This document shows, piece by piece, positions 3,879 through 24,450 of a stretch of 29,436 nucleotides of DNA. Position numbers and translations under genes: made by a program. This DNA is from Candidatus Aenigmatarchaeota archaeon (GTDB lineage: Archaea > Aenigmatarchaeota > Aenigmatarchaeia > GW2011-AR5), in NCBI GenBank assembly GCA_043799385.1, contig JAZDNV010000006.1, forward strand, positions 1 through 29,436, given 5' to 3'. Under the pieces are notes generated by a model that was not told the DNA's origin, searched no databases, and worked only from the letters and a program-made list of their open reading frames with translations. How positions within the stretch are numbered: the stretch's first letter is position 1; the number at the start of each line of letters is the position of its first letter.

Positions 3879-3976
3879 TGGGCTCGCCCGGATTTGAACC
3901 GGGGTCTCATATGGGATTTCTCCGCTGAGAAATGCTCCCTAAGCACGGATCCTAAACCAAACTAGACTACGAACCC
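3879..3976 (-). tRNA. tRNA-Pro (anticodon AGG) with a 23-nt intron at 40/41 (3911-3933)
   Basis: Acceptor stem GGGTTCG/CGAGCCC-A; T-arm CCCGG-TTCAAAT-CCGGG; anticodon arm CGTGC-TT-AGG-GA-GC|ATG restored after removing the intron; clean bulge-helix-bulge (GGGA/TCCC); mature length 75 nt; CCA not encoded. Confidence 0.9.
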
Positions 3977-4022: not shown

Positions 4023-4129
4023 TGGGCTCGCCCGGATTTGAACCGGGGTCTCAATTAGGCTTCTATCAGCTTTTCGCTAATAAAATGCTCCCAAAGCTCG
4101 GATCCTAAACCAAACTAGACTACGAACCC
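4023..4129 (-). tRNA. tRNA-Pro (anticodon TGG) with a 32-nt intron at 40/41 (4055-4086)
   Basis: Same body as the neighbouring tRNA; anticodon arm CGAGC-TT-TGG-GA-GC|TTG after splicing; 10-bp intron hairpin; relaxed BHB; mature length 75 nt; TTTAAAT TATA-like box upstream. Confidence 0.92.
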
Positions 4130-5526: not shown

Positions 5527-6345
5527 ATGGCACTGCGCGATTTGCTGAAGAATAAACTGATTGATAAAGAACTCAATCTAGTGCCGACATCGTTCGACAT
5601 AATCGGCAACAAAGAAAAAGCCGTAGCGATAATAGAGCTGCCTGACGAACTGAAAAAGAGGCAGGAAATTGCCAACGCGCTGATGAAACAGCATAAAAAC
5701 GTGCGTTCCGTGCTGCTGAAGAAGTCGCCAAGAAGCGGCGTGTATAGAACAATGAAACTGCGTTTGATAGCCGGAGATAAAAACACAGTCGTAACGCATA
5801 GCGAATCCGGTTGTCGATTTCTGCTCGATCCGAGAAAAGTCTATTTCTCGCCGCGTGAATCCGCAGAACGTATGCGAATAGCAGAAAAGGTGAAAAGCGA
5901 TGAAACCGTAATGGTCTTCTTCGCCGGCATCGGACCGTTTGCAATAGTAATCGCAAAGAAATCAAAGCTGAAAAAAGTCATTGGAATAGAGATAAACCCT
6001 GCTGCAGTAAAATACTTCAAGAAGAATGCTAAGCTGAACAAAATAGAAGCAGAAATAGTGAAAGGCGACGTCAGGAACGCTGCAAAAAGATTTTATGGTT
6101 CCTGCGACCGCGTGATAATGCCATTGCCCGAGACATCGATAGATTATCTGGAAGAAGCAATAAACTGTTTAAAGTGTGATGGAATAATACATTATTACTG
6201 CTTTGCCGAAGAAGATAAAATAAATGAAGTGAAGAAGCGTATACAGGCAAAGACGAGGAAAAAGATAGAATTCATCGAAACGAAGAAAGTTTTACCATAC
6301 GGACCGAGGATATGGAAGTATAGGATAGATTTTGTGGTTAAATGA
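5527..6345 (+). CDS. Trm5/Taw2 (Met-10+) family tRNA-modifying SAM-dependent transferase
   Basis: SFDIIG, H.E.GC.F.LD..KVYFSPR...ER.RI, FFAGIGPF, EINP.A, DRVIMPLP, IIHYY. Confidence 0.85.
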   Translation: MALRDLLKNKLIDKELNLVPTSFDIIGNKEKAVAIIELPDELKKRQEIANALMKQHKNVRSVLLKKSPRSGVYRTMKLRLIAGDKNTVVTHSESGCRFLLDPRKVYFSPRESAERMRIAEKVKSDETVMVFFAGIGPFAIVIAKKSKLKKVIGIEINPAAVKYFKKNAKLNKIEAEIVKGDVRNAAKRFYGSCDRVIMPLPETSIDYLEEAINCLKCDGIIHYYCFAEEDKINEVKKRIQAKTRKKIEFIETKKVLPYGPRIWKYRIDFVVK

Positions 6346-7364
6346 ATCCAATTAAAAAATACCCTGAAATGGTATCTGAAGCGATAAGAGCTTCAAAAAA
6401 AATTAATTTACCAAAGTTTGATTTCGACAAGATAGTGTTCTTCGCTATTGGCGGTTCGGCGATAGTCGGTTATTTCATAAAAGATATGCTGAAATATGAT
6501 TGTAAAAAGCCGATAGAAGTCTTCATTGATTACCGCATTCCAAAGTTTGTAGATAAGAAAACACTGGCAGTTTTAATAAGCTACTCTGGAAATACGGAAG
6601 AACCGTTGAGCCAATTTGTAGAGGCATTGAACCGTAAATGCAAGATAATTGGCGTTACGTCAGGCGGAAAACTCGAGGAATGGTGCACTAAATTAAAATT
6701 GCCGCTCATTAAAGTTCCTGGAGGCTATGAGCCGCGCTACGCTGCACCACTAATGCTCATACCGTTGGTCGCATATTTTGAAAAGATCGGTTTGGGAAAA
6801 TTCAAAAAAGATGTAAACGAGTGCATCGGTGCCTTGAAAAAGATAAATCACAGCGAACTGGATAGGATTGCAAATAATCTGAACGGCCGTGACATAGCTG
6901 TTTATGGCCCGAACGACTTCGACGGCGTTGTCAGAAGATTCAAAAATGATTTCAATGAGAATTCAAAGCTTCTGATAGCTTGCAACACGTTTCCAGAGAT
7001 GGACCATAATGATATCGACGGTTTCGAAATACCAGAGAATAACAGGAATCGAGTCGTTCTTCTATTGAGAGACAGGGATGAAAGTTTCGAGATGAAAAAT
7101 CGCATCGATATAACGAGAGATGTCATAAGAAAAAATGTTAAATCAATAAACGAAGTATACGCTGTCGGAAAATCAAGACTGGCCAAAATCGTCTCCTTGA
7201 TTTACATGAGCGGCTACATCACCTGCAAAATCGCAGAGTTGAACAACTTAGATCCGAAGGAAACAAAACTCTTGCATGAAATGAAAAAACAGATGAAAGC
7301 TAAAGTTAACCTAGTTGAAAGGCTGGAAAAAAAGTTGAAATTACCTAAAAAATTATTAATATAA
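6342..7364 (+). CDS. Bifunctional phosphoglucose/phosphomannose isomerase (SIS domain)
   Basis: IGGSAI, ISYSGNTEE, TSGGKL, PR.A, NENSK, FPEM.HN. Confidence 0.85.
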   Translation: MNPIKKYPEMVSEAIRASKKINLPKFDFDKIVFFAIGGSAIVGYFIKDMLKYDCKKPIEVFIDYRIPKFVDKKTLAVLISYSGNTEEPLSQFVEALNRKCKIIGVTSGGKLEEWCTKLKLPLIKVPGGYEPRYAAPLMLIPLVAYFEKIGLGKFKKDVNECIGALKKINHSELDRIANNLNGRDIAVYGPNDFDGVVRRFKNDFNENSKLLIACNTFPEMDHNDIDGFEIPENNRNRVVLLLRDRDESFEMKNRIDITRDVIRKNVKSINEVYAVGKSRLAKIVSLIYMSGYITCKIAELNNLDPKETKLLHEMKKQMKAKVNLVERLEKKLKLPKKLLI

Positions 7365-9083
7365 TCCGAACGTGTCGTCCTTCTTTCGCTTGATCTCAAA
7401 GATCTCTTCGAGAACGGTTTTTTCGTGCTCAGTGAGAAGGTCCTCGTACTTCTTTAATTTCTGGTATTCGTCGTTGCTTATATCCGTGTAAAGAATGTCG
7501 CCCTCGTCCAACTGCCTTCCCATTACTATCTGGCCAACTATCGAGACTGCTACTTTATCGCCTATCTTTGCCTCATCGACGTCCTTGCCCTGGGACTGAA
7601 TCTGTTTGACACGACCGATCTTCTTGTCGTCCTTAAATAAATCTGCGCCTGGCTTAAGTATTCCTGCGATAATCTCGCATCCTGCTATCACTGGGTCGCT
7701 TGCTCGGAAAACGAGACCTGGAAGTATGCGGAACTTGCATGGTCTTGTTATTTCAGAAAGCTCTTCTTTTCTAAGTTCTTCGACCTTCCTTACTCGAAGC
7801 TTTTCATAATCCTCTATCAGTCGGTAGATGACGTCTGATGAAAGTATTTCCACACCCTTGTCTTTGGCACTGTCTCCAATCTCCTCTATCGGCTTGGCGT
7901 TAAAACCGATGACTACTCTTAGCAACGGGTCAACGTTTGCTTCGGCTCTAATAACTTCCTCTTTTGTTATCTGGCCGATAGTTGCCTGCTTGATAGGGTA
8001 ATCCTTGAAGATGTTTATCATTGCCTCCAAGCCGCCAATTGTGTCTGCTTTCAGTATCAAACCTGCGGTTTCTGTCTTTATTTCTATATCTTCTTTTTCG
8101 CTTTCCAGTTCTTTCAGCAAAGTTTTTGCTTCGTCCATGCTGTCGGCAGTCCTTACCTCGCATCCTGCGACGACGTCCTTTAGGTCAGGCGCCGATATCT
8201 TAACAACGCACGCCGCTTTGGCTTCTTCTATATTCGTGAATTTCTTTTCCAGGCGCATGTCCTTTAGCGGCGCCGGTACAAGCAGCGTGCGGATTCGCGT
8301 TATCATCGGCGGCTCTGATATAACGAGATAATCGTCCTTGCTTACCGTTCCGTCATAGACGATTACGTCTATTGTCGTACCTAAACCGACTAATTCCTTT
8401 GCTTCAAGTATCATGCCCTTTGACTCATGACCGGTTATCAGCTGCTGGCGCAAAAATTGCTGCGATAATCCCGTGAGCAAAGTCAATAGTTCTGCCAGGC
8501 CGTAACTGTTCTTCGCAGAAATAGGCACTATTGCAACGGTCTTCTTGAAATCAATTACCTTATCGTATCTTTCTGACTCGAAGCCGATTTCGCTCAGCTG
8601 AGCAACAACGTTGTAGAATTTTTCATCAAACAGCGACTTAGTTCTTTCGCTTTGCTCGTCATAGCTGCCAGGCAGCCAGCCCTGAATCCTGTCTATTTTA
8701 TTCAATGCGACAACGAAAGGCACGCGCGACTGCTTCAAGATACTAAGGCTTTCTTTGGTCTGGGGCATCAGGCCCTCGTTTATGTCTATGACTAATATTG
8801 CTAAATCTGCGATGCTACCGCCGCGGCTTCTCAGCGTTGTAAAGGCCTCATGGCCCGGCGTATCGATTAAAAGCAGGCCTGGAATCGATACGCTTATTTT
8901 GAATTTTTCTAGAAGCGTTCCGCAAAGATTTTCTATCGTATCAGCCGGTATGAACGTCGACGATATCGATTGAGTTATCTCGCCTGGCTCGCGAAGAACG
9001 ACAGCCGTGCCCCTAATGCTATCGAGCAAAGTCGTCTTTCCATGGTCTACGTGACCCAGCGTTACTATAATCGGCGAGCGCAT
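7356..9083 (-). CDS. infB: Translation initiation factor IF-2 (aIF5B)
   Basis: RSPI..LGHVDHGKTTLLD, GEITQ, IDTPGHEAF..LR.RGG, NKID, KADT.GGLEA. Confidence 0.96.
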   Translation of the reverse strand: MRSPIIVTLGHVDHGKTTLLDSIRGTAVVLREPGEITQSISSTFIPADTIENLCGTLLEKFKISVSIPGLLLIDTPGHEAFTTLRSRGGSIADLAILVIDINEGLMPQTKESLSILKQSRVPFVVALNKIDRIQGWLPGSYDEQSERTKSLFDEKFYNVVAQLSEIGFESERYDKVIDFKKTVAIVPISAKNSYGLAELLTLLTGLSQQFLRQQLITGHESKGMILEAKELVGLGTTIDVIVYDGTVSKDDYLVISEPPMITRIRTLLVPAPLKDMRLEKKFTNIEEAKAACVVKISAPDLKDVVAGCEVRTADSMDEAKTLLKELESEKEDIEIKTETAGLILKADTIGGLEAMINIFKDYPIKQATIGQITKEEVIRAEANVDPLLRVVIGFNAKPIEEIGDSAKDKGVEILSSDVIYRLIEDYEKLRVRKVEELRKEELSEITRPCKFRILPGLVFRASDPVIAGCEIIAGILKPGADLFKDDKKIGRVKQIQSQGKDVDEAKIGDKVAVSIVGQIVMGRQLDEGDILYTDISNDEYQKLKKYEDLLTEHEKTVLEEIFEIKRKKDDTFGLY

Positions 9084-14942: not shown

Positions 14943-15275
14943 ATGATAATCATGTTTGGAAAGAAACCTGAAGAATACGTTGAACTTGGCTTGGACGGGG
15001 AGGAGAAACCGTTGGATAAGATTTTGCTAGAAGTAGATAAGATGACGTCCTACGAAGATTCAGAGCGAATACAGAGAAAAGTTCGCGACGGCACGATTCT
15101 GCTCGTTAAGGTCAAGGACCTGAAAGAAAAGGACATGGCAGAGCTTAGGCGTGCGTTGGAGCGCGTGAAGAAGACTTGCATGGCAATCGAGGGCGACATC
15201 GCCGGCATAGGCGACGACTGGGTTGTCGTGGCGCCGAAGGTAGCGAAAATCCACCGCGAAAAGTTAGAGGAATAG
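14943..15275 (+). CDS. sepF: Cell division protein SepF (archaeal type)
   Basis: VR.G.ILL, ELRRA...K......GDIAG....WVVV.P....I.R. Confidence 0.85.
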   Translation: MIIMFGKKPEEYVELGLDGEEKPLDKILLEVDKMTSYEDSERIQRKVRDGTILLVKVKDLKEKDMAELRRALERVKKTCMAIEGDIAGIGDDWVVVAPKVAKIHREKLEE

Positions 15276-15306
15276 ACTGATTTGTTTTTGGTTGATTAAA
15301 AATCCA

Positions 15307-16635
15307 TCAGAAGTACTTAGCTTTCAGGAAAATGGAAATGTTCTTGTTCTTCCTGACGAATTTCCAGAAATCATCGGATTCCAGAATCTTCGCTTTTACA
15401 AACTCTTTCGCTATGTTGTCAGGTATGCCAGCTGCAACGAGTTCCTTTGCTTTTTTGCCTATGAAGCTCTTCAGTAGCTGATGAGCCGTTTTGTAATCGC
15501 GGTCCTTTTCTGCGACCCATCTATCGCCTTCGACGGATGCTTTCTTGTATTTGCTCAGGAATTCCTTTGAGTGCTTCTCTGAAGATATAGGCGGACCGAC
15601 CATCTTTTTTATCACAGGCAGCTTCCATACCTCTGTTTCAAAGATTAGTGCCATCTCTTTTTCTGCGTATTCAAAATTTCTGATGATGATGAATTCGTTG
15701 TGCCTGAATAATGTTTCTAATCTAGCCATGGCGCGCCGCAGCTGCGGGTAGAGCGTATCGTCAATGACATCGGGCTTTTTCATCGTTATTGCAATGAATC
15801 GGGTTTCGCGGTTCTTGAGAATCTTTATCTCTCTTGCGCTTAACGGCGACATTTTTTTCGGGAAGAAGTAATCCTTGCTCGGTTTTTTCATGTATTCACG
15901 CGCTTTTTCAACGAATTTCATAAAATTCTCACAGCTCAAATTAGCGGCAACGTTTCTTTTTGAGTCAACTGGGTCTATTATAATAAGAGGCTGATCACTG
16001 AATTTTGCTGTACCGATTCCTTCAATATCGATTACCTTGCCTGGTTTCCATGCGCTTGCTGCATTGAGGACGTTTTCAAAAGAGCCGTACCTTATTATCA
16101 ACAATTCACAGATATAACCGGCAAAGCCCAAACGCTTGGCGTCGCTACCATAAACTGCGATTCCTTTGCAGAATTGCTTCAATAACCGCACATCATCGCG
16201 CAAATCAGGGTCCAATCGCTCTAGCACGTATTCTAGATGCAGCGGCGAACGATCGACCGCAGACTTAATCTTCTCGTTCTTCTTTATGTGGTAGCATGGA
16301 ACTATATCTACACTAAATCCGTTTATCTTCGCATGAACGTAGGGGTGCTCTGCGTACTTGATTACAAATTTTCCTTTCATTTCGTTTGCAAGCTTCTTGC
16401 CAAACGCTAAGCCTTTGTCTTCCAATTCTTGCCTCTCAACGTCAGGAAATAGCATGAACAAATCAACGTCATGGTCGCCGTGCAGCCATGTGAACTTGCC
16501 GATGCTTCCGACAACGACCGCATCGTAGCCGCTTATCGTCTTAGCTACCCGCACCATATCTCTTATGAAATCATTTGCAATCTTTTCCTCCCATTTCGTT
16601 GGCTTTATTTTCTTGAGCACGACATCGCGAAGCAT
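15307..16635 (-). CDS. cca: CCA-adding enzyme (archaeal class I)
   Basis: VGS..K.TWL.GD.DVDLF, YAEHPY, VDIVPCY, SAVDRSP.H, VRLLKQF.K...YG, GY.CELL, IDPVD..RNVAA. Confidence 0.95.
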   Translation of the reverse strand: MLRDVVLKKIKPTKWEEKIANDFIRDMVRVAKTISGYDAVVVGSIGKFTWLHGDHDVDLFMLFPDVERQELEDKGLAFGKKLANEMKGKFVIKYAEHPYVHAKINGFSVDIVPCYHIKKNEKIKSAVDRSPLHLEYVLERLDPDLRDDVRLLKQFCKGIAVYGSDAKRLGFAGYICELLIIRYGSFENVLNAASAWKPGKVIDIEGIGTAKFSDQPLIIIDPVDSKRNVAANLSCENFMKFVEKAREYMKKPSKDYFFPKKMSPLSAREIKILKNRETRFIAITMKKPDVIDDTLYPQLRRAMARLETLFRHNEFIIIRNFEYAEKEMALIFETEVWKLPVIKKMVGPPISSEKHSKEFLSKYKKASVEGDRWVAEKDRDYKTAHQLLKSFIGKKAKELVAAGIPDNIAKEFVKAKILESDDFWKFVRKNKNISIFLKAKYF

Positions 16636-16673
16636 AAATTAGATTTGTTTTCAGAAGATATAAAAGTGTAACC

Positions 16674-16763
16674 AGTATGGTGCGCATGAGGAGTATCATG
16701 TTTTCATGATACTCCTAGTTGTGGTATACGTCTACAGACGTATACCACTATGCGCGCCATACT
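16674..16763. repeat. Y-shaped nested inverted repeat element, copy 1
   Basis: 14-bp closing stem (16674-16687/16750-16763, one G-T pair) enclosing a 12-bp hairpin (16689-16716) and a 13-bp hairpin (16721-16748). Confidence 0.9.
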
Positions 16764-16800
16764 CACAACCAATTTAAGATTACGAGCCGCTTTGATACGT

Positions 16801-18327
16801 ATGGAGTTCGTCATTCATCCTTGGATAAACCAGAACGCTATAGAAAAAAGGGACTACCAGGACAACATCGTAAAAGTTGCAGTAACCGGCAATACGTTAT
16901 GCGTGCTGCCCACAGGCTTGGGAAAAACAAACATAGCAGCACTCGTTGCTGCTGATAGACTAATGAAGTTTCCTGACAACAAAATTCTTTTCATGGCGCC
17001 AACGAAGCCGTTGGTCGAGCAGCACAAGAAAACTTTTGAGAAATTCCTTAAGCTTGGCTTAGAATTGCGAATCGCTACGGGCAAGGACAATCCGGAAGAG
17101 CGTGCAAAACTATACAAAGATGGCAATATAATATTCGCCACGCCGCAGACGATAAGGAATGACATCAAAAGGGGGATAATTGATTTGAAAAGCTTCTCAT
17201 TGCTAATCGTTGATGAATGCCACCGCGCGATAGGCAATTACGCCTATCCTGCTGTCGCAAAGAGCTTCATCTACAATTCAAAAAGCCCGTTAATTCTCGG
17301 ATTAACGGCATCGCCTGGCTCGTTCCGCCAGAAAATCGACGAGGTGAAGAAAAGATTATTCATCGAGCACGTGGAGATACGCATGCGCGATGACGAGGAC
17401 GTCCGACCGTTCGTACAGGAATTGGAGCAGGAATGGGTTGAAGTAAAATTAAGCGAAAAAATGGGGGAGATGAAAAAAATTCTAGAGAATTTGAAGAACG
17501 AGAGGATTAAAAAATTGATGAACTGGAAGATACTGTTCGCACCAATAGCGACAAAATCGCGATTGATCGAGCTGCAACAAAGCCTTGCGAGGAAGAAAAC
17601 GGGCATGAGTTGGGCGGCGATGTCCGTGATCGCCGAGATAATGAAAATCGACCATGCATTGATATTGATAGAAACGCAATCGCTATACTCATTAAAAAAT
17701 TATCTTGAAAATCTGAGGGAGCAGAAAACGAAGGCGGTTGCACGTTTGTTCAACAACGAGGATTTCAATAAAGTCATTTCGATTGCAGACGAGCTCATCA
17801 GCAACGGCGATGAGCATCCGAAACTGCAGAAGCTGAGAGAGATTATAGAAGAATCTCTCGAAGACAACAAGTATGCGAGCATAATCGTTTTCGTGCAATA
17901 CCGCGACACGATAACAAAAATTCTGGAAATACTGAAAGGCATAAAATTCGCGTCGCCGATAGAGTTCATCGGCCAGACAAAGAAAGCCGGCAAAGGATTG
18001 AGCCAAAAAGAGCAGGTGCAGATACTGAACGAATTCAGGATGGGTTTTTACAACATACTAATTGCGAGTCAAATCGGCGAAGAAGGTTTGGATATTGAAG
18101 AAACAGACACGGTGGTATTCTACGAGCCGATACCATCGGCGATAAGGAAAATCCAGAGAACGGGAAGAACGGCCAGAACCAAACCAGGTAAGGTTATAAC
18201 TCTGATAACGAAAGGCACGCGCGACGAGGCGTATCACTGGTCCGGCTACCAGAAAGAGAAAAAGATGAAGAAAATACTGTACGGAATGAAAAACGAGAAC
18301 GAACAGAAAGATTTGACGAGTTTTTAA
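16801..18327 (+). CDS. Hef/FANCM-like DEAH-box helicase (helicase domain only)
   Basis: RDYQ, LPTGLGKT, APTKPLV.QH, TPQ, DECHRA.GNYAY, GLTASPG, HPKL, EEGLDI, YEP.PSAIR.IQR.GRT.R; ends QKDLTSF. Confidence 0.92.
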   Translation: MEFVIHPWINQNAIEKRDYQDNIVKVAVTGNTLCVLPTGLGKTNIAALVAADRLMKFPDNKILFMAPTKPLVEQHKKTFEKFLKLGLELRIATGKDNPEERAKLYKDGNIIFATPQTIRNDIKRGIIDLKSFSLLIVDECHRAIGNYAYPAVAKSFIYNSKSPLILGLTASPGSFRQKIDEVKKRLFIEHVEIRMRDDEDVRPFVQELEQEWVEVKLSEKMGEMKKILENLKNERIKKLMNWKILFAPIATKSRLIELQQSLARKKTGMSWAAMSVIAEIMKIDHALILIETQSLYSLKNYLENLREQKTKAVARLFNNEDFNKVISIADELISNGDEHPKLQKLREIIEESLEDNKYASIIVFVQYRDTITKILEILKGIKFASPIEFIGQTKKAGKGLSQKEQVQILNEFRMGFYNILIASQIGEEGLDIEETDTVVFYEPIPSAIRKIQRTGRTARTKPGKVITLITKGTRDEAYHWSGYQKEKKMKKILYGMKNENEQKDLTSF

Positions 18328-18342
18328 TGCAGATATAGCACA

Positions 18343-18621
18343 TCAGATTGAGTCAGAATATTTTTCGCCCAATTCTAATAAGAGTAAATATGCAATTGAA
18401 AAATTACCGAGATCTACACATTCAGAACAGCCTGTTTTGGTTCCCCTCTTTTTCATTTCTTTGTATATAGTTGCCACTTTCGGTTCTGATTGCTCTAATA
18501 ATTCTATAATTCGATCCCTGGCATCTGCACATCTTTTACAAGCATCCTTATTATTCAAATCTTTTCGAGCTAAAGGATTGTAATATATTATTACACGGAG
18601 TGCCTCTTTGATTTCATCCAT
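18343..18621 (-). CDS. Hypothetical protein with two CxxC motifs
   Basis: 92-aa ORF with CKRC and CSEC; AT-rich; fills the gap between hef and the TrmB-family gene. Confidence 0.55.
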   Translation of the reverse strand: MDEIKEALRVIIYYNPLARKDLNNKDACKRCADARDRIIELLEQSEPKVATIYKEMKKRGTKTGCSECVDLGNFSIAYLLLLELGEKYSDSI

Positions 18622-18668
18622 AAATCTCTAATCAAATATGAAAAATAGATTATTTAAAAAATCAGAAC

Positions 18669-19487
18669 TTACTTGACCGGTTTTGAATGATGCCAAACGA
18701 GCTCGAATAGTGGGTCAAGAACATTCGTTGATGCATGGCAGCTCTGCGTCCAGAAGGCGACGTCCTGCGTTGGATGCGTCTTTGTATCATCTGTAAGGCC
18801 GACTAGAAATTCTTCGCCATCGACCAGGCAAACGCGACCGACTAATTTTTCCACGTGCTCGACGTCATCGATGTCACGAACCTGGGCATATTTCGCCAGC
18901 TCTTTTGCAACGTTCGTTTTTCCAACAGGCGCGAGCAACTGTATTTTTACACCGTTTTCCGAGGCTTTTTTCATCAATGTAAGGTGGTTTTCTGCAAGCT
19001 CTTTTACTCCTGACTCGGTTGTTATGAGCTTTATTGATTTTTTAGCCTTTTTGAACATCGTCTCCATCTGCTGCAACATGGCGTATCGGCCTTTTAACGC
19101 GCCAGTGAGGTCTTCGGGCTTTACCGTCTTTATGTTGTCCTTGTAAAGCCTTTCCAACTCTCTTATTGCTTCAGACTTACTAAGCCTGTCCATCTTATTT
19201 CCCATCTCTACAGCGTCTTCCTGTATTTTTTTCTTCGCTCTTTCGACTGCTTCCTTTGGATTTATAGCCGCATACTTCATGGGTTTTCCCGGCTGTATTA
19301 CTATGAAACCACGACCTGCCAATGACTCAAGAACATCATAGCATCTCGATCTAGGAACGTTAGAAATATCAGAAAGTTCGCCAGCAGTCGAAGAACCGCG
19401 AGAAAGAAGAGCCGCCCACAAGTTTCTTTCGTACTTGTTCAGCCCTATTGACTTCAAAACATCAAGGGTTTTTGACGTGGCAATCAT
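18669..19487 (-). CDS. TrmB-family transcriptional regulator
   Basis: LKSIGLN.YE...W.ALL..G.STAGELS.IS.VPRSR.YDVL.SL...GF wHTH plus C-terminal effector-type domain. Confidence 0.9.
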   Translation of the reverse strand: MIATSKTLDVLKSIGLNKYERNLWAALLSRGSSTAGELSDISNVPRSRCYDVLESLAGRGFIVIQPGKPMKYAAINPKEAVERAKKKIQEDAVEMGNKMDRLSKSEAIRELERLYKDNIKTVKPEDLTGALKGRYAMLQQMETMFKKAKKSIKLITTESGVKELAENHLTLMKKASENGVKIQLLAPVGKTNVAKELAKYAQVRDIDDVEHVEKLVGRVCLVDGEEFLVGLTDDTKTHPTQDVAFWTQSCHASTNVLDPLFELVWHHSKPVK

Positions 19488-19499
19488 ACTATCAGTATA

Positions 19500-19679
19500 A
19501 ATTACATCTATAAAAAACTTTAAAAATGTTGTTTCTTAAGAATAACTAAAATTTTCACAAAAATTTCAATTACAAAGAGCCTCTTCCTCAATTACAACTT
19601 TTTCAGTTTTATGGGAGCAGCTGACCTCGATGATTTTTACCGAATATGACATTACGCTGAAATTACATTTCAATTACAA
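19500..19679. repeat. Cluster of short direct repeats (TCAATTACAA x3, AATTACA x2)
   Basis: TCAATTACAA at 19566, 19588 and 19670; AATTACA at 19500 and 19661; all in the same orientation in an AT-rich 200-bp intergenic region. Confidence 0.75.
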
Positions 19680-19690
19680 CAATTCTGCAA

Positions 19691-20857
19691 CTAGAACCAG
19701 CTTCCCTTTTTCTGCTTCTTCGCCTCTTCCTTATACTTCTTGTCCAGCTCTATGACCACATTTTTGACGTTTTCAACCGCCTTTTTGTTGTCGCCGACGC
19801 CGCATGAATTGCCGACGCCGATTATTATGATTTTTTCGTTCTTCTTCGAGCGGTTTACAGATTTATTTATCGCATTTTTTACGCTTGGCATCGAATTGAA
19901 TATCTCCTTTTTCATGGGAACTATCGCATCCTCCATGCCTACTTTCACCACGATACTGTCCATAGGTATCTTTTTCACGAGCAGAACATTCTCGATCATC
20001 TCTCTCTGGCCGATTCCGCCCATTGCAAAGCCGACACCCTCGGCGACGCTACCCGATTTTTCGCCCTCGAGCTTCTGCGCAGCGTCTATAGTTATTATTT
20101 TTCCAATCTTGTTTCTCTTCATTATTTTATTTATCGCCTCATCGATTCTACCTAAACTGGGCTCAGGTCCCTTTGCCTTGAGGACAAAACATTTTCTTCC
20201 GTTTATTATCGTCTCGCCATAAACGATTTCTTCAGCAATCTCTCTGCTACTGTCTATCATCGATGCAGCAACTAACGGACCAATCGAGTCGCCGATTGGC
20301 CATCCGTTTATGAATGCCTCTGTGCCCTTAAACTCGCTTTCTGCGATTTTCTCTATTATAGGCAACTGCATCTGGAGTATCATAGCAATCTGCAGGTTCT
20401 TGAACTTCTTTGACAATTCGACAAAGTGTCGCACCATCTTTGATATCTGGCGAAGGCCGATGGCCGCACGCAAGCTGTAATTCAGCTCCTTTTTTTCCTT
20501 TGCGTTCAGATTACTGGCAATGGAATCCGTGAATTCTGCAAAGCGCGTCTCCATGCTCCTTATTGTCTGGTCGATTTTCTTCACTAGGCCGAAAGGATCG
20601 ATGGCCGACGGCTCGACAACAAAGAAATCAGTGAATTCGTTTATCTCTTTTCTCAATTCCTTTGTCGGATGCTTCATTACTTTTTTCGAGACCATAACGT
20701 TTGCTCGCTGTGACATCTCCTCCATCTTTCTTGCTGACTGCTCGAGCTTGTATATCATCTGCGAAAGCATCAGGCGCGGATAGAAGAATATGAATACAAA
20801 AAACATGAGGAACCATATTATTGTTCCGATAGCGTCCGTCTGCATCAGTATAACCAT
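19691..20857 (-). CDS. DUF1512 family membrane-anchored archaeal protein
   Basis: N-terminal TM; FFVVEP..IDP.G, LQ.A..LQM.LP, PIGDSIGPLVA, IITIDAA.KLEGE.SG.VAEGVG, IIGVGN..G. Confidence 0.8.
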   Translation of the reverse strand: MVILMQTDAIGTIIWFLMFFVFIFFYPRLMLSQMIYKLEQSARKMEEMSQRANVMVSKKVMKHPTKELRKEINEFTDFFVVEPSAIDPFGLVKKIDQTIRSMETRFAEFTDSIASNLNAKEKKELNYSLRAAIGLRQISKMVRHFVELSKKFKNLQIAMILQMQLPIIEKIAESEFKGTEAFINGWPIGDSIGPLVAASMIDSSREIAEEIVYGETIINGRKCFVLKAKGPEPSLGRIDEAINKIMKRNKIGKIITIDAAQKLEGEKSGSVAEGVGFAMGGIGQREMIENVLLVKKIPMDSIVVKVGMEDAIVPMKKEIFNSMPSVKNAINKSVNRSKKNEKIIIIGVGNSCGVGDNKKAVENVKNVVIELDKKYKEEAKKQKKGSWF

Positions 20858-20919
20858 ATAATCACTCAAGAGCAAATGAATAAAGGAAAATAAAGTATTT
20901 AAAATGATTTTAATTTCTC

Positions 20920-21013
20920 TAGCTTTGCACAAAAAATGATGTGCATCTGTATGATGCACATCGATTGTAGGCTATCGTCGCAAAGACGATAGCCTGGTTT
21001 TTGTGCAAAGCTA
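20920..21013. mobile_element. Y-shaped nested inverted repeat element, copy 2; MITE-like with apparent target-site duplication
   Basis: Perfect 16-bp terminal stem (20920-20935/20998-21013); 10-bp hairpin (20938-20962); 11-bp hairpin (20969-20995); direct repeat TAATTTCTCT at 20911-20920 and 21012-21021. Confidence 0.7.
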
Positions 21014-23188
21014 ATTTCTCTTGTATCTTTTCATCAGCAGCGAGTTGCTAACAACGGAAACGGATGAAAATGCCATCGCTGCTCCGGCAACCATTGGGTT
21101 GAGCAAAAAGCCTGTGAACGGATATAATAATCCTGCAGCGATTGGTATTCCGATTGAATTGTAGAAGAACGCCCAGAAAAGGTTCTGCTTTATTTTCTTC
21201 ATCGTATAATTGCTAAGGTCGATAGCAGTAACGACGTCCCGCAAATCATTTTTTATCAGGACCATCTGTCCCGTCTCCAGAGCAATGTCCGTACCTGCGC
21301 CTATGGCAATACCGACGTCAGCAGCAGCCAAAGCCGGCGCGTCATTTATTCCGTCACCGACCATTGCGACGAATTTGCCAGCCTTCTGCAACTTTCTGAC
21401 CTCCTTTTCTTTGTCGCCTGGCAGAACGTCCGCCAGAACATTGTCTATTTCTAATTTCTTTGCCACTGCGCCTGCTGTTCTCTTGTTATCGCCTGTTATC
21501 ATCACGACTTCTTTGCCCATGTCATGCAATTGTCGAACCGCGTTTTTTGCGTTGTCCTTTATCGTATCAGCGACTGCGATTAATCCGATAATCTTCTTAT
21601 TCAGCGCGAGAATCATCACGGTCTTTCCTTCATCCTCCACGTTGCTTATCTTTTCATCGTCGACCGTTAACCTGTATTTTTTCATCAGGCTCCTGTTGCC
21701 GAAGAAAATCTCCTTTCTGCCATATCTCGCCCTGATTCCATGACCAGGTATTGCCTCAAAGAAATTGGCATCAGGAACGGTAATTTTTTCCTTTTTTGCC
21801 TTGTTCATAATCGCTTCCGCGAGCGGGTGCTCTGATTTTTTCTCTGCTATTGCGGCGTACTTCAAAATTTCTTTTTTCTTTGATTTTCCAAATTGAACTA
21901 TATCGGTAACTTCTGGTTTGCCTTTTGTCAACGTTCCTGTCTTGTCAAAAATTATTGTCGTGAGTTTGTGAGCATTTTCCAGGGCTTCGGCATTTTTGAT
22001 TAAGATTCCGTTCTCTGCTGCCTTTCCTGTGCCAACCATTATTGCCGTAGGCGTTGCAAGACCTAGCGCGCAAGGGCATGCAATTATCAGGACCGCTATG
22101 AAAATTCCCAAAGAAAAGACAAAGCCTTGGCCTAAAACAAGGTACCACAGCATGGAGGACATAACCGCTATAATAATGACTGCCGGCACAAAATAGCCGC
22201 TAACTTTGTCTGCTATCCTCTGTATTGGTGCCTTGCTGCCCTGCGCTTCTTCTACTAACTGCACGATCTGGTTCAGTACCGTGTCTTTGCCTATTTTCGT
22301 TGCCCTGAATCTGAACGAGCCGTGCTTGTTTATCGTTGCACCGATAACAGGAGAGCCTTTCTTTTTCTCGACTGGAATGCTCTCACCTGTAACCATCGAT
22401 TCGTCGACAGAAGAAAAGCCGTCAAAAACTATGCCGTCAACTGGTATTTTCTGGCCAGGCTTTACTACAACGATATCACCAACTACGACGTCTTCTATAG
22501 GTATCTGCAACTCTTTTCCGTTTCTTACAACAATTGCAGTCTTCGGCTGCAGACCTACAAGTTTCTTAATCGCTTCCGAGGCTTTGCCCTTTGTCACCGA
22601 CTCAAGCCATTTCCCGAGGATGATAAACGTGATAAGAATCGCAGATGTATCAAAATATGTATAGCTTCCAAATGACGTCAGCGTTGCTAAAACGCTGTAG
22701 AAATATGCAGCGCTCGTTCCTGTAGCCACCAACGTGTCCATAGTCGCAGTCCTTGCCTTCAGCGCCGCAAGAGCTCCTTCATAGAACCGGTATCCGACAA
22801 CGAATTGCACTGGCGTTGCTAGAGCGAGCAGTATAAAATTCTGGTTGGGTAGAATTATATTGAAAAATTCAGGAAATGACAGGATGAATATCGGCACTGA
22901 TAAAATCGTGGATGTGATAAACAATTTCTTTAACGTTGATATCTCTTTCTTTTTTTCCATTGCTGCATGGTCGTGCATCAAGGCACTGGCGACCTTGTAA
23001 CCCAACTTTTCAATCGCATTTATTATCCTGTCTTCCTTTATTTTTTTCTCGGTATATTCCACGGTCGCCTTCTCTGTTGCAAAATTTACGTTCGCGTCGA
23101 TGACTCCGTCTAATTTTTTCAATGCCTTTTCTATTCTCTGCGCACAGGATGCGCAGTGCATGCCCGAAACCGAGAATATCTTCTTCAT
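21011..23188 (-). CDS. copA: Copper-translocating P1B-1 type ATPase
   Basis: N-terminal GMHCASC HMA domain, [40 protein letters not shown] and MAFSS Cu(I)-type TM motifs. Confidence 0.95.
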
Positions 23189-23217
23189 ATTTTTATTCTG
23201 TTTGTCGATTTTTTATA

Positions 23218-24450
23218 TCACTTACTCCCACAGCCGCATCCGCAACTACCGGAACTGCCACTAAGCGCAGGTGCGATTCCTGTGTATGCTGCAACAGAGC
23301 CGTCTGAATTTTCTACAACTATCTGCCCCTGATACATGTTCATGGAACATGCAAACTTGAAGGTGCCTGATTTGTCTGGTGTAAATTCTATCACGTTGTC
23401 GCCTGTTTTCAAAGTCTTCTTTATGCCGTATTCAGGGATTACAATGCTTCTTGAACATCCTTTCACGCTGTTCATGTCAGCCACTAGCTGCACTGGAATC
23501 CCTTTCTTCACGCGTATTGGATTTGGGTAGTAGTTCGAGCCCTGCACGGATAACTGCACTATCTGGACGCCATCTTTTATCGCAGCAAGACTGCTGTCAG
23601 TACTTTTTCCGGTAATTGGGTTGCCACTATCGATTATCTGGTTGCTCGGTGATTCGCTCAATACTTTTGCAGGATACTCTTTGAAAACGTCCAGCGACAG
23701 CATTTTCTGTCTATCCGTTTTTGCCGAATCATAGCTCACATCAAATATATTCGGGAAAGAAAATTGCACGCCTGTAACGCCATCAATCGTTTTTAATTCA
23801 CTAGATATCAACGGCGCATGACCAGGGCATGGTATATCCACCTCCAGCCTTATCGAATCAGCGCCGATTGCGTACACGCCTGACGCCGATAAAGACACGT
23901 TCGCGAGAAGCGGGAATATCAGCATGAACAACACAAGGTTGATGCCTATCGTCGAGCCGTACATTGCTGAGAGATATTTCCATTTTCTCTTCATGCCGTC
24001 CAGCGATAACAATCCGTTCTTTCTGAGGTACCATGCTGATGAAAGCGTTGCAAACACCAGTGACAACAGGATAAGGGCATGGAAAAACCATCTGTTCATC
24101 AAGAGCGGTTTGAAGAACTCCATCAGCACGGTGACGCCCAGAACAGAACCTATTATAAATGCAATGCACCCTATGTGCGGTATGAGTCCGTAAACGATTC
24201 CCTGCCGGACAGAACTCTTTGCCTTGCCGCTACCGGTGTCATATCCTAAATTATCAATCTCTGCCTTTATTTCAGCTACATCTATTTGTGTACTATCAAA
24301 ACGGATGTGCGCCTTTTCTTTGGCGATATCCACATTTATGCTATCTACGCCATGCAGCTGCGATATCTTTTCTTCTATCTTTTGTTTGCAGGAAGCGCAG
24401 TGCATCCCCTTTATGCCGATTGTTTTCTCTTCATAGCCATCTTCTTCCAT
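23218..24450 (-). CDS. Multidomain metal-binding membrane protein (HMA - TM segments - HMA-like - cupredoxin-like - Cys tail)
   Basis: GMHCASC; three hydrophobic segments including PHIGC; IPCPGH; YYPNPI.VKKG.PV...GC...FACSMNM; tail SCGCGCGSK; GGTGG SD. Confidence 0.8.
   Translation of the reverse strand: MEEDGYEEKTIGIKGMHCASCKQKIEEKISQLHGVDSINVDIAKEKAHIRFDSTQIDVAEIKAEIDNLGYDTGSGKAKSSVRQGIVYGLIPHIGCIAFIIGSVLGVTVLMEFFKPLLMNRWFFHALILLSLVFATLSSAWYLRKNGLLSLDGMKRKWKYLSAMYGSTIGINLVLFMLIFPLLANVSLSASGVYAIGADSIRLEVDIPCPGHAPLISSELKTIDGVTGVQFSFPNIFDVSYDSAKTDRQKMLSLDVFKEYPAKVLSESPSNQIIDSGNPITGKSTDSSLAAIKDGVQIVQLSVQGSNYYPNPIRVKKGIPVQLVADMNSVKGCSRSIVIPEYGIKKTLKTGDNVIEFTPDKSGTFKFACSMNMYQGQIVVENSDGSVAAYTGIAPALSGSSGSCGCGCGSK

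Follow-up and report, generated by a model that had tools for sequence, protein, structure and literature searches.

The Y-shaped intergenic repeats followed up here, in a 29,436-nucleotide stretch of contig JAZDNV010000006.1 from a Candidatus Aenigmatarchaeota archaeon (hereafter the window), are small non-coding mobile elements (MITEs). Elements of this kind are already known; what is unusual in this family is that two internal hairpins stay paired despite sequence change. The window contains two such structures. Very probably the second (element 2) is a MITE with IS903-type ends that was moved in trans, its hairpins belong to the DNA level, its copies are stranded, and the first (element 1) is a diverged look-alike. 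The main value of this reading is correct annotation, the palindromes being insertions and not RNA genes, origins or regulators.

A preliminary description had quoted the hairpins of these two elements of about 90 bp. The quoted strings are in place in the sequence, and the three-way junction is the predicted minimum-energy fold of both elements, on both strands and with both RNA and DNA parameters. The fold energies of elements 1 and 2 are -55 to -62 kcal/mol (RNA), with z of -9.3 to -12.2, and none of 200 shuffles was as stable. The motif TTGT stands before the second hairpin in both window copies, as had been noted.

Element 2 and its family

Element 2 and its surroundings have the following features.

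20921..21012, plus strand (the strand reading hairpin A first): element 2, a 92-bp MITE copy (covariance model, nhmmer)
20921..20935, plus strand: left terminal repeat (TIR) AGCTTTGCACAAAAA, pairing perfectly with 20998-21012 (columns 1-15 of alignment A2)
20998..21012, minus strand: right TIR (pairing with the left TIR; alignment)
20938..20962, plus strand: hairpin A, 10-bp stem, loop TGTAT
20968..20996, plus strand: hairpin B, 11-12-bp stem, loop GCAAA
20912..20920, no strand: left copy of the target duplication (TSD), 9 bp, AATTTCTCT, 9/9 match with 21013-21021
21013..21021, no strand: right TSD copy, 9 bp, 9/9 match with 20912-20920
19691..20959, minus strand: neighbouring DUF1512 protein gene, whose longest ORF extends into element 2
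21011..23188, minus strand: neighbouring heavy-metal P-type ATPase gene, ending at the element 2/TSD junction

No other site in the genome scores as high against the covariance model as element 2 (108.8 bits), which matches the family profile in nhmmer with E = 2.3e-25; within its first-described limits of 20920 to 21013 it has a perfect closing stem of 16 bp around hairpins at 20938-20962 and 20969-20995. In the sequence, the TAG stop codon of the minus-strand ATPase gene is composed of the last two MITE bases and the first base of the right TSD, and insertion of element 2 recreated this stop codon. The true start of the DUF1512 gene, judging from its sequence, is probably further downstream than that of its longest ORF. 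All copies of the family are intergenic, and the ORFs that cross them are long-ORF artefacts entering from neighbouring genes; the earlier view that the elements occupy harmless sites thus holds.

The family to which element 2 belongs has 28 copies on 14 contigs of the 786-kb archaeal genome, non-coding and 83-99 bp long (83-101 bp as nhmmer matches). At E<1e-5, nhmmer gave 29 matches that correspond to 28 distinct copies, and the covariance model R1 recovers the same 28. The TIRs are 15-16 bp long, and 96.7% of closing-stem cells are paired across the 28 copies. The family TSD is 9 bp, and in 21 of the 28 its two sides match at 7/9 or better: flanking 9-mers compared at zero offset agree at 9/9 in six copies, 8/9 in nine, 7/9 in six, 6/9 in two, and 5/9 or fewer in five. 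A recognisable TSD is absent in 5 of the 28 copies. A nested, 150-bp variant of the MITE was also seen.

Occurrence outside this genome is patchy. The preliminary description had proposed a scan of relatives, and the family is present in 11 of the 60 relatives searched, with copy numbers per genome from 1 to about 28; 10 of the 11 relatives' copies that were read have TSDs of at least 8/9. The covariance model also gave 13 matches on metagenome contigs, with a 9/9 TSD in 10 of 12 assessable matches, several of which represent the same site in different samples. A family pattern scan of viral contigs gave no matches. The palindromes had been considered as possible assembly artefacts; this is ruled out because the same family and architecture recur in 11 other genomes and in the 13 metagenome matches.

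MITEs are recognised by size (short, under about 300 bp), TIRs, TSDs of fixed length, dispersed copies and an autonomous relative, and all of these are found for the element 2 family. The proposal of a non-autonomous mobile element is accordingly upheld by the TIRs, the 9-bp TSDs, the 28 dispersed copies and a genome with no PF01609 match. Non-autonomous TIR elements of archaeal genomes are the obvious comparison: the available part of PMC10969869 lists Sulfolobus SM1-4, Halobacterium and Haloquadratum as known archaeal MITE cases, and a 2024 MITE census (PMC11602168) reports, in the part available, that some DPANN genomes are densely populated with MITEs. Neither the present family, nor any IS903-like MITE of archaea, nor the hairpin core is described in the available parts of PMC11602168 (supplements aside) and PMC10969869, and our literature search found no description of the 28-copy family.

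Partner transposons and the IS903-like end

The preliminary description had seen no cognate transposase in the window, and this extends to the genome as a whole: PF01609 has no matches in the source genome (91% complete), PF01609 and PF01797 being the only transposase models used on it. PF01609 matches are present in 20 of the 60 relatives, and a transposase gene flanked by the same ends, which it had been suggested to look for, was found in relatives only (L190, L191, L192). An end beginning GGCTTTG... or AGCTTTG... lies just 3' of the transposase gene at 7 of the 8 loci read. The element in L191 measures 3686 bp and has perfect TIRs of 16 bp and a perfect TSD of 9 bp; that in L192 measures 5754 bp, also with a perfect TSD of 9 bp, and that in L190, of 3884 bp, ends on both sides in the same TIR. 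The partner transposases are DDE_Tnp_1 enzymes, 406-431 aa long, that have an additional SWIM zinc finger at the N-terminus, and one of the partner transposons carries a restriction-modification methylase as cargo.

The terminal repeat of the MITE is nearly the same as that of IS903/IS903B (IS5 family, enterobacterial plasmids). The MITE contains the IS903-type terminal sequence (GGCTTTGTTGAA...), and its end GGCTTTGTTGAAAAAG differs at only 2 of 16 positions (14 identical) from the IS903B end GGCTTTGTTGAATAAATC, which we read from NZ_CP037912.1. The transposases of IS903B and of the archaeal partners also have a common best NCBIfam model, NF033579. It is the best family for the archaeal enzymes by about 77-93 bits, although these three score 134.8, 132.9 and 121.9 bits, just below its cut-off of 140 bits, whereas the IS903B transposase scores 357 bits; for the E. 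coli IS5 transposase the best model is NF033581. Duplications of 9 bp are made by IS903 itself and are the hallmark of the IS903 group, and the archaeal MITEs and partner transposons likewise make 9-bp target duplications; the two plasmid copies that we read have no matching flanks.

There are also differences from IS903. The hosts here are archaeal and have genomes smaller than 1 Mb, the partner transposases, besides their extra SWIM zinc finger, are only 24% identical to that of IS903B (BLASTP over 269 aa, E = 1e-12), and the partners are cargo transposons of 3.7-5.8 kb rather than an IS of 1057 bp. An IS903-like end is thus used in tiny DPANN-type archaea with a 24%-identical transposase, and this shared end reflects either a striking conservation of end recognition or cross-domain transfer. 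The MITE core is unrelated to the partner transposons: the MITE interior gave no nhmmer match to L189-L192 at E<=10, and the link between MITE and partners is only about 16 bp of TIR.

Each copy consists, in order, of a 15-bp TIR, hairpin A, a short junction, hairpin B and a second 15-bp TIR. We propose that the TIRs are the ends on which a transposase of the IS5 family, IS903 type, acts. The enzyme would be supplied in trans and would cut the target with a 9-bp stagger, which would give rise to the 9-bp duplications. By the PF01609 search the source genome lacks such an enzyme, and therefore its copies are probably stranded. With 28 copies and no cognate transposase found, the family is relevant to the question of how mobile DNA is maintained in streamlined archaea that probably depend on a host.

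Hairpin pairing and its possible causes

All three helices covary, with both-sided change in 21 of the 37 pairs of the 28-copy alignment. Paired cells amount to 93.6%, a level reached by none of 500 shuffles with the copies treated as unrelated, and slid controls are 32-42% paired; that structure is conserved over sequence, as first proposed, is well supported by these values. The Y shape is retained in relatives with very different stems (L049, L050). The core motifs GATGG...CCATC and GGCTAT...ATAGCC also occur together with unrelated TIRs, L049 having the same core motifs with ends GACACCGTCTAAATAA and a perfect 9-bp TSD, and the Y core recurs with at least three unrelated end pairs (GGCTTTG..., GACACCG..., AGTATGG...). 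Some copies have lost hairpin A (e.g. C7:7593, C2:22692, C14:38108, C23:17134 and C23:5897) and C26:16651 is without part of hairpin B, and the hairpins are therefore dispensable for persistence.

The closing stem of the Y is simply the paired TIRs. In our interpretation the internal palindromes, which remain self-complementary as the sequence drifts, are a property of the element DNA rather than of a host RNA gene. Their upkeep would result both from selection on the element itself and from changes typical of palindromes (template switching or gene conversion between copies). A structured RNA family was raised at the outset; this alternative, that the elements are structured non-coding RNA genes or host-maintained cis-regulatory RNA motifs, would suit the very stable, strongly covarying predicted folds and the intergenic position of every copy. 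We consider this very improbable given the TIRs and 9-bp TSDs, the patchy presence and variable copy number among relatives, the occurrence of copies in both orientations relative to flanking genes (same in 10 and opposite in 7 tandem contexts), and the lack of a one-strand G-U excess (22 G-T versus 19 A-C mismatches among 983 cells). Rfam gave only two tRNAs at gathering score in the window and, at E up to 10, five matches in 16400-21300, all far below gathering scores and at chance level. Perfect hairpins and a three-way-junction shape would also suit HUH/Y1 single-strand transposase substrates (REP/BIME, IS200/IS605 ends) or ITR-like replication hairpins, an analogy that we find scarcely credible. 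IS200/IS605 and REP-RAYT systems are not known to have TIRs or TSDs and have subterminal hairpins and a Y1 transposase in the genome, and parvovirus-type ITRs are the termini of a linear ssDNA replicon with a Rep gene. The elements here have fixed-length TSDs and true TIRs, which are DDE features and which, to our knowledge, have not been seen for IS200/IS605. They are interstitial, in chromosomal gaps between housekeeping genes and away from replicon termini, their IS903-like partner elements encode DDE_Tnp_1 enzymes, and PF01797, found in 6 of 14 control genomes, has no match in the source genome. Both IS200/IS605 or REP-RAYT and a parvovirus-type ITR were rejected.

What maintains the hairpins of the MITE is a closer question. 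A substantial possibility, though not one that we hold to be probable, is that they are functionless and are kept perfect by intrastrand template switching and gene conversion between copies. Consistent with this, C29:19477 has in hairpin A the loop ATACA, an exact inversion of the consensus TGTAT (its reverse complement), variants of the TIR, hairpin A and hairpin B reassort among copies, and the mismatch types are symmetric. Where two copies share more than 90% identity, moreover, their differences are clustered in a single hairpin as compensated pairs (over 8 such copy pairs, 8 changes are compensated and 10 are single). Template-switch mutation at quasipalindromes is a precedent known from E. 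coli (PMC7202029, in the part available). The origin and persistence of two such palindromes across genera and TIR types are left unexplained by these processes, however. Palindromes are usually prone to deletion, so that long retention suggests some benefit. It is possible, if rather unlikely, that the Y core is instead a selected functional module, combinable with different TIRs and serving either as a hinge, with extruded hairpins or a cruciform letting TIRs about 60 bp apart meet in the transposase complex, or as a portable two-way terminator. The recurrence of the core motifs with unrelated TIRs, a core not derived from the partner transposons found, covariation in all three helices, the existence of the hairpin-plus-T-run pattern, and the persistence of the hairpins despite a 51-nt insertion within hairpin A all favour such a module, but hairpin A or B is missing from several copies that nonetheless persist, the TIRs of element 1 are free of T-runs, and palindrome-specific mutation could maintain paired stems without function. 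We regard it as unlikely that the two-hairpin Y core is an autonomous functional cassette rather than the leftover of a deleted transposon, a reading prompted because the core is dissimilar to the partners, recurs with unrelated ends, and stays paired through sequence turnover, loop inversion and the insertion of nested hairpins. If true, very short elements would depend on the DNA structure of the cassette to unite their ends for a DDE transposase or, alternatively, the cassette would be a portable two-way terminator by which insertions become harmless where about 90% of the genome is coding, and MITEs could exchange ends between transposase specificities. Whatever their end type, hairpins that stay paired across genera offer a clean natural setting in which selection on DNA structure can be told apart from mutation peculiar to palindromes.

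In most copies the T5-6 run of the TIR comes after each hairpin, reading outward, which gives such a copy the look of a transcription stop working in both directions; this shape may explain why insertion is tolerated in very short intergenic gaps. The two top terminator-like sites of 15000-23500 are the hairpins of element 2: hairpin B, followed by a T5 run on the plus strand, ranked first, and hairpin A, followed by a T6 run on the minus strand, ranked second. Bacteria have comparable MITE-like repeats in SPRITE, BOX and RUP of Streptococcus pneumoniae and in Correia and ERIC, all of them small, scattered between genes and stably folded as transcripts. According to the available part of PMC10969869, SPRITE includes terminator-like hairpins, as element 2 does, and no report of a conserved Y-shaped core was found there. 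The present family differs from these bacterial repeats in its domain of life and its parent IS family, in its three-way junction, where two hairpin-plus-T-run modules face outward, and in stems that covary across genera.

Element 1

Element 1 has the same architecture as element 2 and different ends; it is single-copy and diverged. Its features and neighbours are as follows.

16674..16763, minus strand (slightly better on the family model): element 1, single-copy diverged Y-shaped element (covariance model)
16689..16716, plus strand: first hairpin, perfect, 12-bp stem, 4-nt loop
16721..16748, plus strand: second hairpin, perfect, 12-bp stem, 4-nt loop
16670..16766, no strand: 97-bp stretch, comprising element 1 and 7 further bp, that one metagenome contig lacks (contig alignment)
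15307..16635, minus strand: neighbouring archaeal CCA-adding enzyme gene (Pfam PF09249, PF21133, PF01909)
16750..18327, plus strand: neighbouring DEAD/DEAH-box helicase gene, whose longest ORF begins within element 1

The closing stem (16674-16687 with 16750-16763) has 14 pairs including one T-G. The two window copies had been taken as homologous and in the same orientation, for which we find the case weak. Element 1 is unmatched by the family nhmmer profile at E<1, its terminal repeats are unlike those of the element 2 family, and a 9-bp duplication was looked for in its flanks and none was found; nor was a second paired copy of its terminal repeat found in the 44 family genomes searched. With filters off, element 1 scores higher against the family covariance model in minus-strand (48.1 bits) than in plus-strand orientation (40.3 bits). 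This score, on which a link to the MITE family depends, is driven largely by structure, and on the model element 1 would, if anything, be inverted relative to element 2. The terminator-like scan did not flag element 1, its TIRs having no T-run.

One metagenome contig joins 16669 directly to 16767. It is 260 nt long, with one mismatch in 221 nt, 39 nt past the joint and a depth of 2.4, and by this single low-depth contig element 1 is a present/absent polymorphism among closely related genomes. Five letters, AACCA, can be placed on either side of the joint (a 4-5-bp repeat), and the contig could equally reflect a slippage deletion between 5-bp repeats. The start of the CCA-adding enzyme gene is separated from element 1 by 38 bp, and on the other side the sequence makes an in-frame ATG at 16801 a likelier start for the helicase gene than that of its longest ORF.

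A dispersed family of Y-shaped elements with target-site duplications

The preliminary description reported two Y-shaped repeats, and reading the sequence confirmed both at the positions it gave. Each has a closing stem, formed by its paired ends, that encloses two adjacent hairpins.

Features of the two elements
16674-16763: element 1, closing stem, 14 pairs including one T-G
16689-16716 and 16721-16748: element 1, hairpins, both perfect, 12 bp
20920-21013 (MITE proper 20921-21012): element 2, closing stem, perfect, 16 bp
Within element 2: inner hairpins of 10 bp and 11-12 bp
20912-20920, repeated at 21013-21021: element 2, target-site duplication (TSD), AATTTCTCT, identical at 9/9 positions

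Both elements have the three-way junction as their minimum-energy fold on either strand, whether RNA or DNA parameters are used; z-scores lie between -9.3 and -12.2, and in 200 shuffles no fold was as stable. The Rfam search proposed in the preliminary description found no family for either element.

More Y-shaped elements were collected by scanning for adjacent perfect hairpins, and a profile built from 15 of these gave 29 matches at E<1e-5 in the host genome. One match is a contig-end duplicate of another, leaving 28 distinct copies, all of 83-101 bp, which share the plan of a 15-bp TIR, hairpin A, a junction, hairpin B and a second 15-bp TIR; element 2 is one of them. The covariance-model scan of the genome that had also been proposed, with a model from the 28-copy alignment, found the same 28 and one relative of 68 bp (C11:12309-12376), which is flanked by a perfect 9-bp repeat. 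We then compared the nine bases on each side of each of the 28 copies at zero offset.

Identity of the flanking 9-mers among the 28 copies
9/9: 6 copies
8/9: 9 copies
7/9: 6 copies
6/9: 2 copies
5/9 or fewer: 5 copies

In relatives the TSD is identical at 8/9 positions or better in 10 of the 11 copies read, and of the 12 metagenome-contig matches that could be assessed, 10 show 9/9; several of these matches represent one site in different samples, and one (L215) resembles a chimera of two sites. We conclude that these elements are MITEs, a known kind of element, with TIRs and 9-bp TSDs. The earlier inference of a mobile element was right, and the suggestion of an HUH- or parvovirus-like element is not supported.

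All 28 copies are intergenic. Coding sequence occupies about 90% of this genome on a crude ORF call, and two of the copies are overlapped by ORF calls that merely run through them. A P-type ATPase gene has its stop codon exactly where element 2 is inserted; the insertion rebuilt the stop as TAG, where an empty site would be expected to have TAA, and the protein is unchanged as a result. Of 60 relatives searched, 11 carry the family. Ten of these are among 36 genomes of the same taxonomic family and represent several genera; the eleventh is the one carrier among 24 genomes placed in other families of that order. This patchy presence fits a mobile element. A pattern scan of viral contigs for the family gave no matches; a pattern with 14 specified bases gave 120 matches in genome contigs, mostly bacterial and attributable to chance, and none of five tested fits the covariance model. 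Unpaired TIR matches in two relatives (G013 and G036) are truncated MITEs. A 49-aa ORF beside one of these (L175) was considered as a transposase and rejected, as it matched an ordinary gene that adjoins the CCA-adding enzyme gene in G013.

A MITE census, as far as its accessible text goes, reports that MITEs reach high densities in some genomes of DPANN archaea (PMC11602168). The family is not described in that text, nor in the accessible part of a review of prokaryotic MITEs (PMC10969869). Its unusual features are a Y-shaped core that stays paired across genera and is combined with different ends, and that is not derived from the partner transposons we found.

Conserved pairing in the hairpins

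The preliminary description held that structure is conserved, and the 28-copy alignment bears this out: 93.6% of cells are paired, and 21 of 37 pairs show changes on both sides (6/15 in the closing stem, 6/10 in hairpin A and 9/12 in hairpin B). None of 500 shuffles reached any of five covariation measures, and when the partner was slid by 1-3 columns as a control, pairing fell to 32-42%. Since the TIRs must be recognised by one enzyme, covariation in the closing stem is expected and uninformative on folding, and the two hairpins are the informative part. In two copies from relatives (L049 and L050) the hairpin stems are almost entirely different, with pairing kept.

The earlier suggestion of an RNA family is not supported: besides the lack of an Rfam family, the wobble pairs show no excess on one strand (the 983 cells comprise 898 Watson-Crick, 22 G-T, 19 A-C and 44 other), and the 17 copies between same-strand genes have the orientation of the genes in 10 cases and the opposite in 7. 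In one copy (C29:19477) the loop of hairpin A is inverted, matching the reverse complement of the consensus loop exactly, and an inversion of this kind bears the mark of palindrome dynamics at the DNA level. On this evidence the hairpin pairing is more likely a DNA-level than an RNA-level feature. Variants of the TIR, hairpin A and hairpin B occur in mixed combinations across copies, and differences between near-identical copies are clustered as compensated pairs in one hairpin; element 2 and C2:15913, for example, are 92.4% identical and differ by two compensated pairs in hairpin A. These patterns fit concerted change, either by template switching, a described mechanism of mutation at quasipalindromes (PMC7202029, in the part accessible), or by conversion between copies; selection on the element may be compatible with the same patterns. 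Several copies persist after loss of hairpin A or of part of hairpin B.

A 150-bp variant consists of a 99-bp form with a 51-nt insert within hairpin A (L211:200-349 compared with L219:4-102, both metagenome matches). The two have their left flank and TSD in common, and both forms therefore occupy one site in different samples. The insert forms two adjacent hairpins (-31.5 kcal/mol, z = -4.7) whose stems differ between copies with pairing kept. Listed with this variant are three further metagenome contigs (L208, L225 and L220) and matches of 126-153 bp in G013, G036 and G004.

When either hairpin of element 2 is read outward, the T5-6 run of the TIR comes next. In a simple terminator scan of 15000-23500 its two hairpin sites rank first, and the scan found 15 sites in total compared with 7.6 +/- 2.8 in shuffles. 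The MITE-like repeat SPRITE is described, in the accessible part of the review, as having terminator-like hairpins (PMC10969869), and those of element 2 are terminator-like by pattern. It is possible that members of the family, as predicted terminators, affect host transcription.

Partner transposons with IS903-like ends and transposases

IS903B, from an E. coli plasmid, is 1057 bp long, with one end reading GGTTTTGTTGAATAAATC and the other GGCTTTGTTGAATAAATC; a MITE subfamily end (GGCTTTGTTGAAAAAG) is identical to an IS903B end at 14 of 16 positions. The transposase domain PF01609 (DDE_Tnp_1) has no matches in the host genome and has matches in 20 of 60 relatives. An end beginning GGCTTTG or AGCTTTG lies directly 3' of the transposase gene in seven of the eight loci fetched. 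Local alignment within 400 bp of the transposase ORFs found no inverted repeats, because the transposons are much longer, and wider stretches gave whole elements.

Partner transposons with MITE-family TIRs
L191:4054-7739 (G009): 3686 bp; TIRs perfect, 16 bp; 9-bp TSD perfect (TTGTAACGT)
L192:1304-7057 (G026): 5754 bp; TIRs present; 9-bp TSD perfect (CGTTTTCAT)
L190:2390-6273 (G004): 3884 bp; same TIR at both ends; 9-bp TSD imperfect

A fourth locus (L189) has one end only. The transposases are 406-431 aa long and combine an N-terminal SWIM zinc finger with a DDE_Tnp_1 domain; the transposase genes of L191 and L192 span 6148-7368 and 5726-7021, respectively. Their best NCBIfam model is NF033579 (122-135 bits, cut-off 140), which the IS903B transposase also matches (357 bits), whereas the best model of E. 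coli IS5 is NF033581. By BLASTP, a partner transposase and that of IS903B are 24% identical over 269 residues (E = 1e-12). The partner transposons carry cargo genes, which in L192 include an N6-adenine methylase that is split and has Eco57I and TaqI_C domains. What they have in common with the MITEs is only the ends of about 16 bp; the MITE interior gave no match to them (nhmmer, E<=10).

The hosts of these transposons are DPANN-type archaea. L191 carries, as cargo, a 480-aa protein without a family and a HEPN-like match that is weak (E = 0.0085). In the L190-L192 transposons the TIR motif (TGTTTAAAAAGT-like) recurs subterminally at the ends, in two or three additional copies. At the transposase-proximal end (in L190-L192, and at gene 3' ends in L182-L187) one copy, inverted, extends over the final codons of the gene and is able to pair with the TIR.

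Element 1 and the host genome

Element 1 was missed by the sequence profile of the family. In a covariance-model search run without filters it scores 48.1 bits (minus strand) and 40.3 bits (plus strand), compared with 58-109 bits for true members. On the minus strand it has an AGTG junction, a CTGTA loop and an AGG..TATCAT hairpin in common with the family, and we therefore regard it as a diverged relative, its score being largely structural; it is probably inverted relative to element 2. Its ends (AGTATGGTGCGCAT) are unlike those of the family, and it has no 9-bp TSD. No second paired copy of these ends was found in 44 genomes of the taxonomic family, where pattern counts were close to those of the control. 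The ends resemble that of E. coli IS5 at 12/16 and 10/16 positions, which is a lead only; with one copy and an unclear TSD, element 1 was not placed in the IS5 group.

In a groundwater metagenome contig of 260 nt, which matches the left flank of element 1 with one mismatch in 221 nt, 16669 is joined directly to 16767; the 97 bp absent correspond to element 1 plus 7 bp, and five letters at the joint (AACCA) fit either side. Some close relatives thus have element 1 and others lack it; this polymorphism, seen in one low-depth contig, could reflect either insertion or precise loss by slippage between short repeats. None of the metagenome contigs placed on the window spans element 2. The CCA-adding enzyme and helicase genes start on either side of element 1 and run away from it, and A-T-rich, putatively TATA-like stretches flank it on both sides.

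Further Y-shaped elements with yet other ends are present in the host genome (C25:7994, C25:103832 and C4:13712; 30-41 bits), and an element with one hairpin (C11:44911) has a perfect 9-10-bp TSD. The motifs TTTAAAATnCAT and TTGAAATAGC underlie AT-rich paired hairpins that occur on three contigs (C10:18341-18425, C9:13655-13704 and C16:2316-2369) and have no relation to the MITE family.

The assembly, in which the window is contig C13, comprises 786 kb in 31 contigs and is 91% complete. One MITE copy is common to the ends or overlap of two contigs (C24:1-44 and C26:16651-16733) with identical flank, so that the family is one cause of assembly breaks. Archaeal genes in the window encode an archaeal-type CCA-adding enzyme, FttA/aCPSF1, aIF5B and TrmB, and two tRNA genes contain introns. 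These are tandem on the minus strand, at 3879-3976 (98 nt) and 4023-4129 (107 nt); the first is tRNA-Pro (ARAGORN) and the second has a near-identical body, each with an intron 3' of the anticodon that contains a hairpin. In one metagenome contig 18323 is joined to 18669 with 30 different letters between; this contig lacks a 92-aa ORF without a Pfam match (18343-18621), which appears to vary between close strains.
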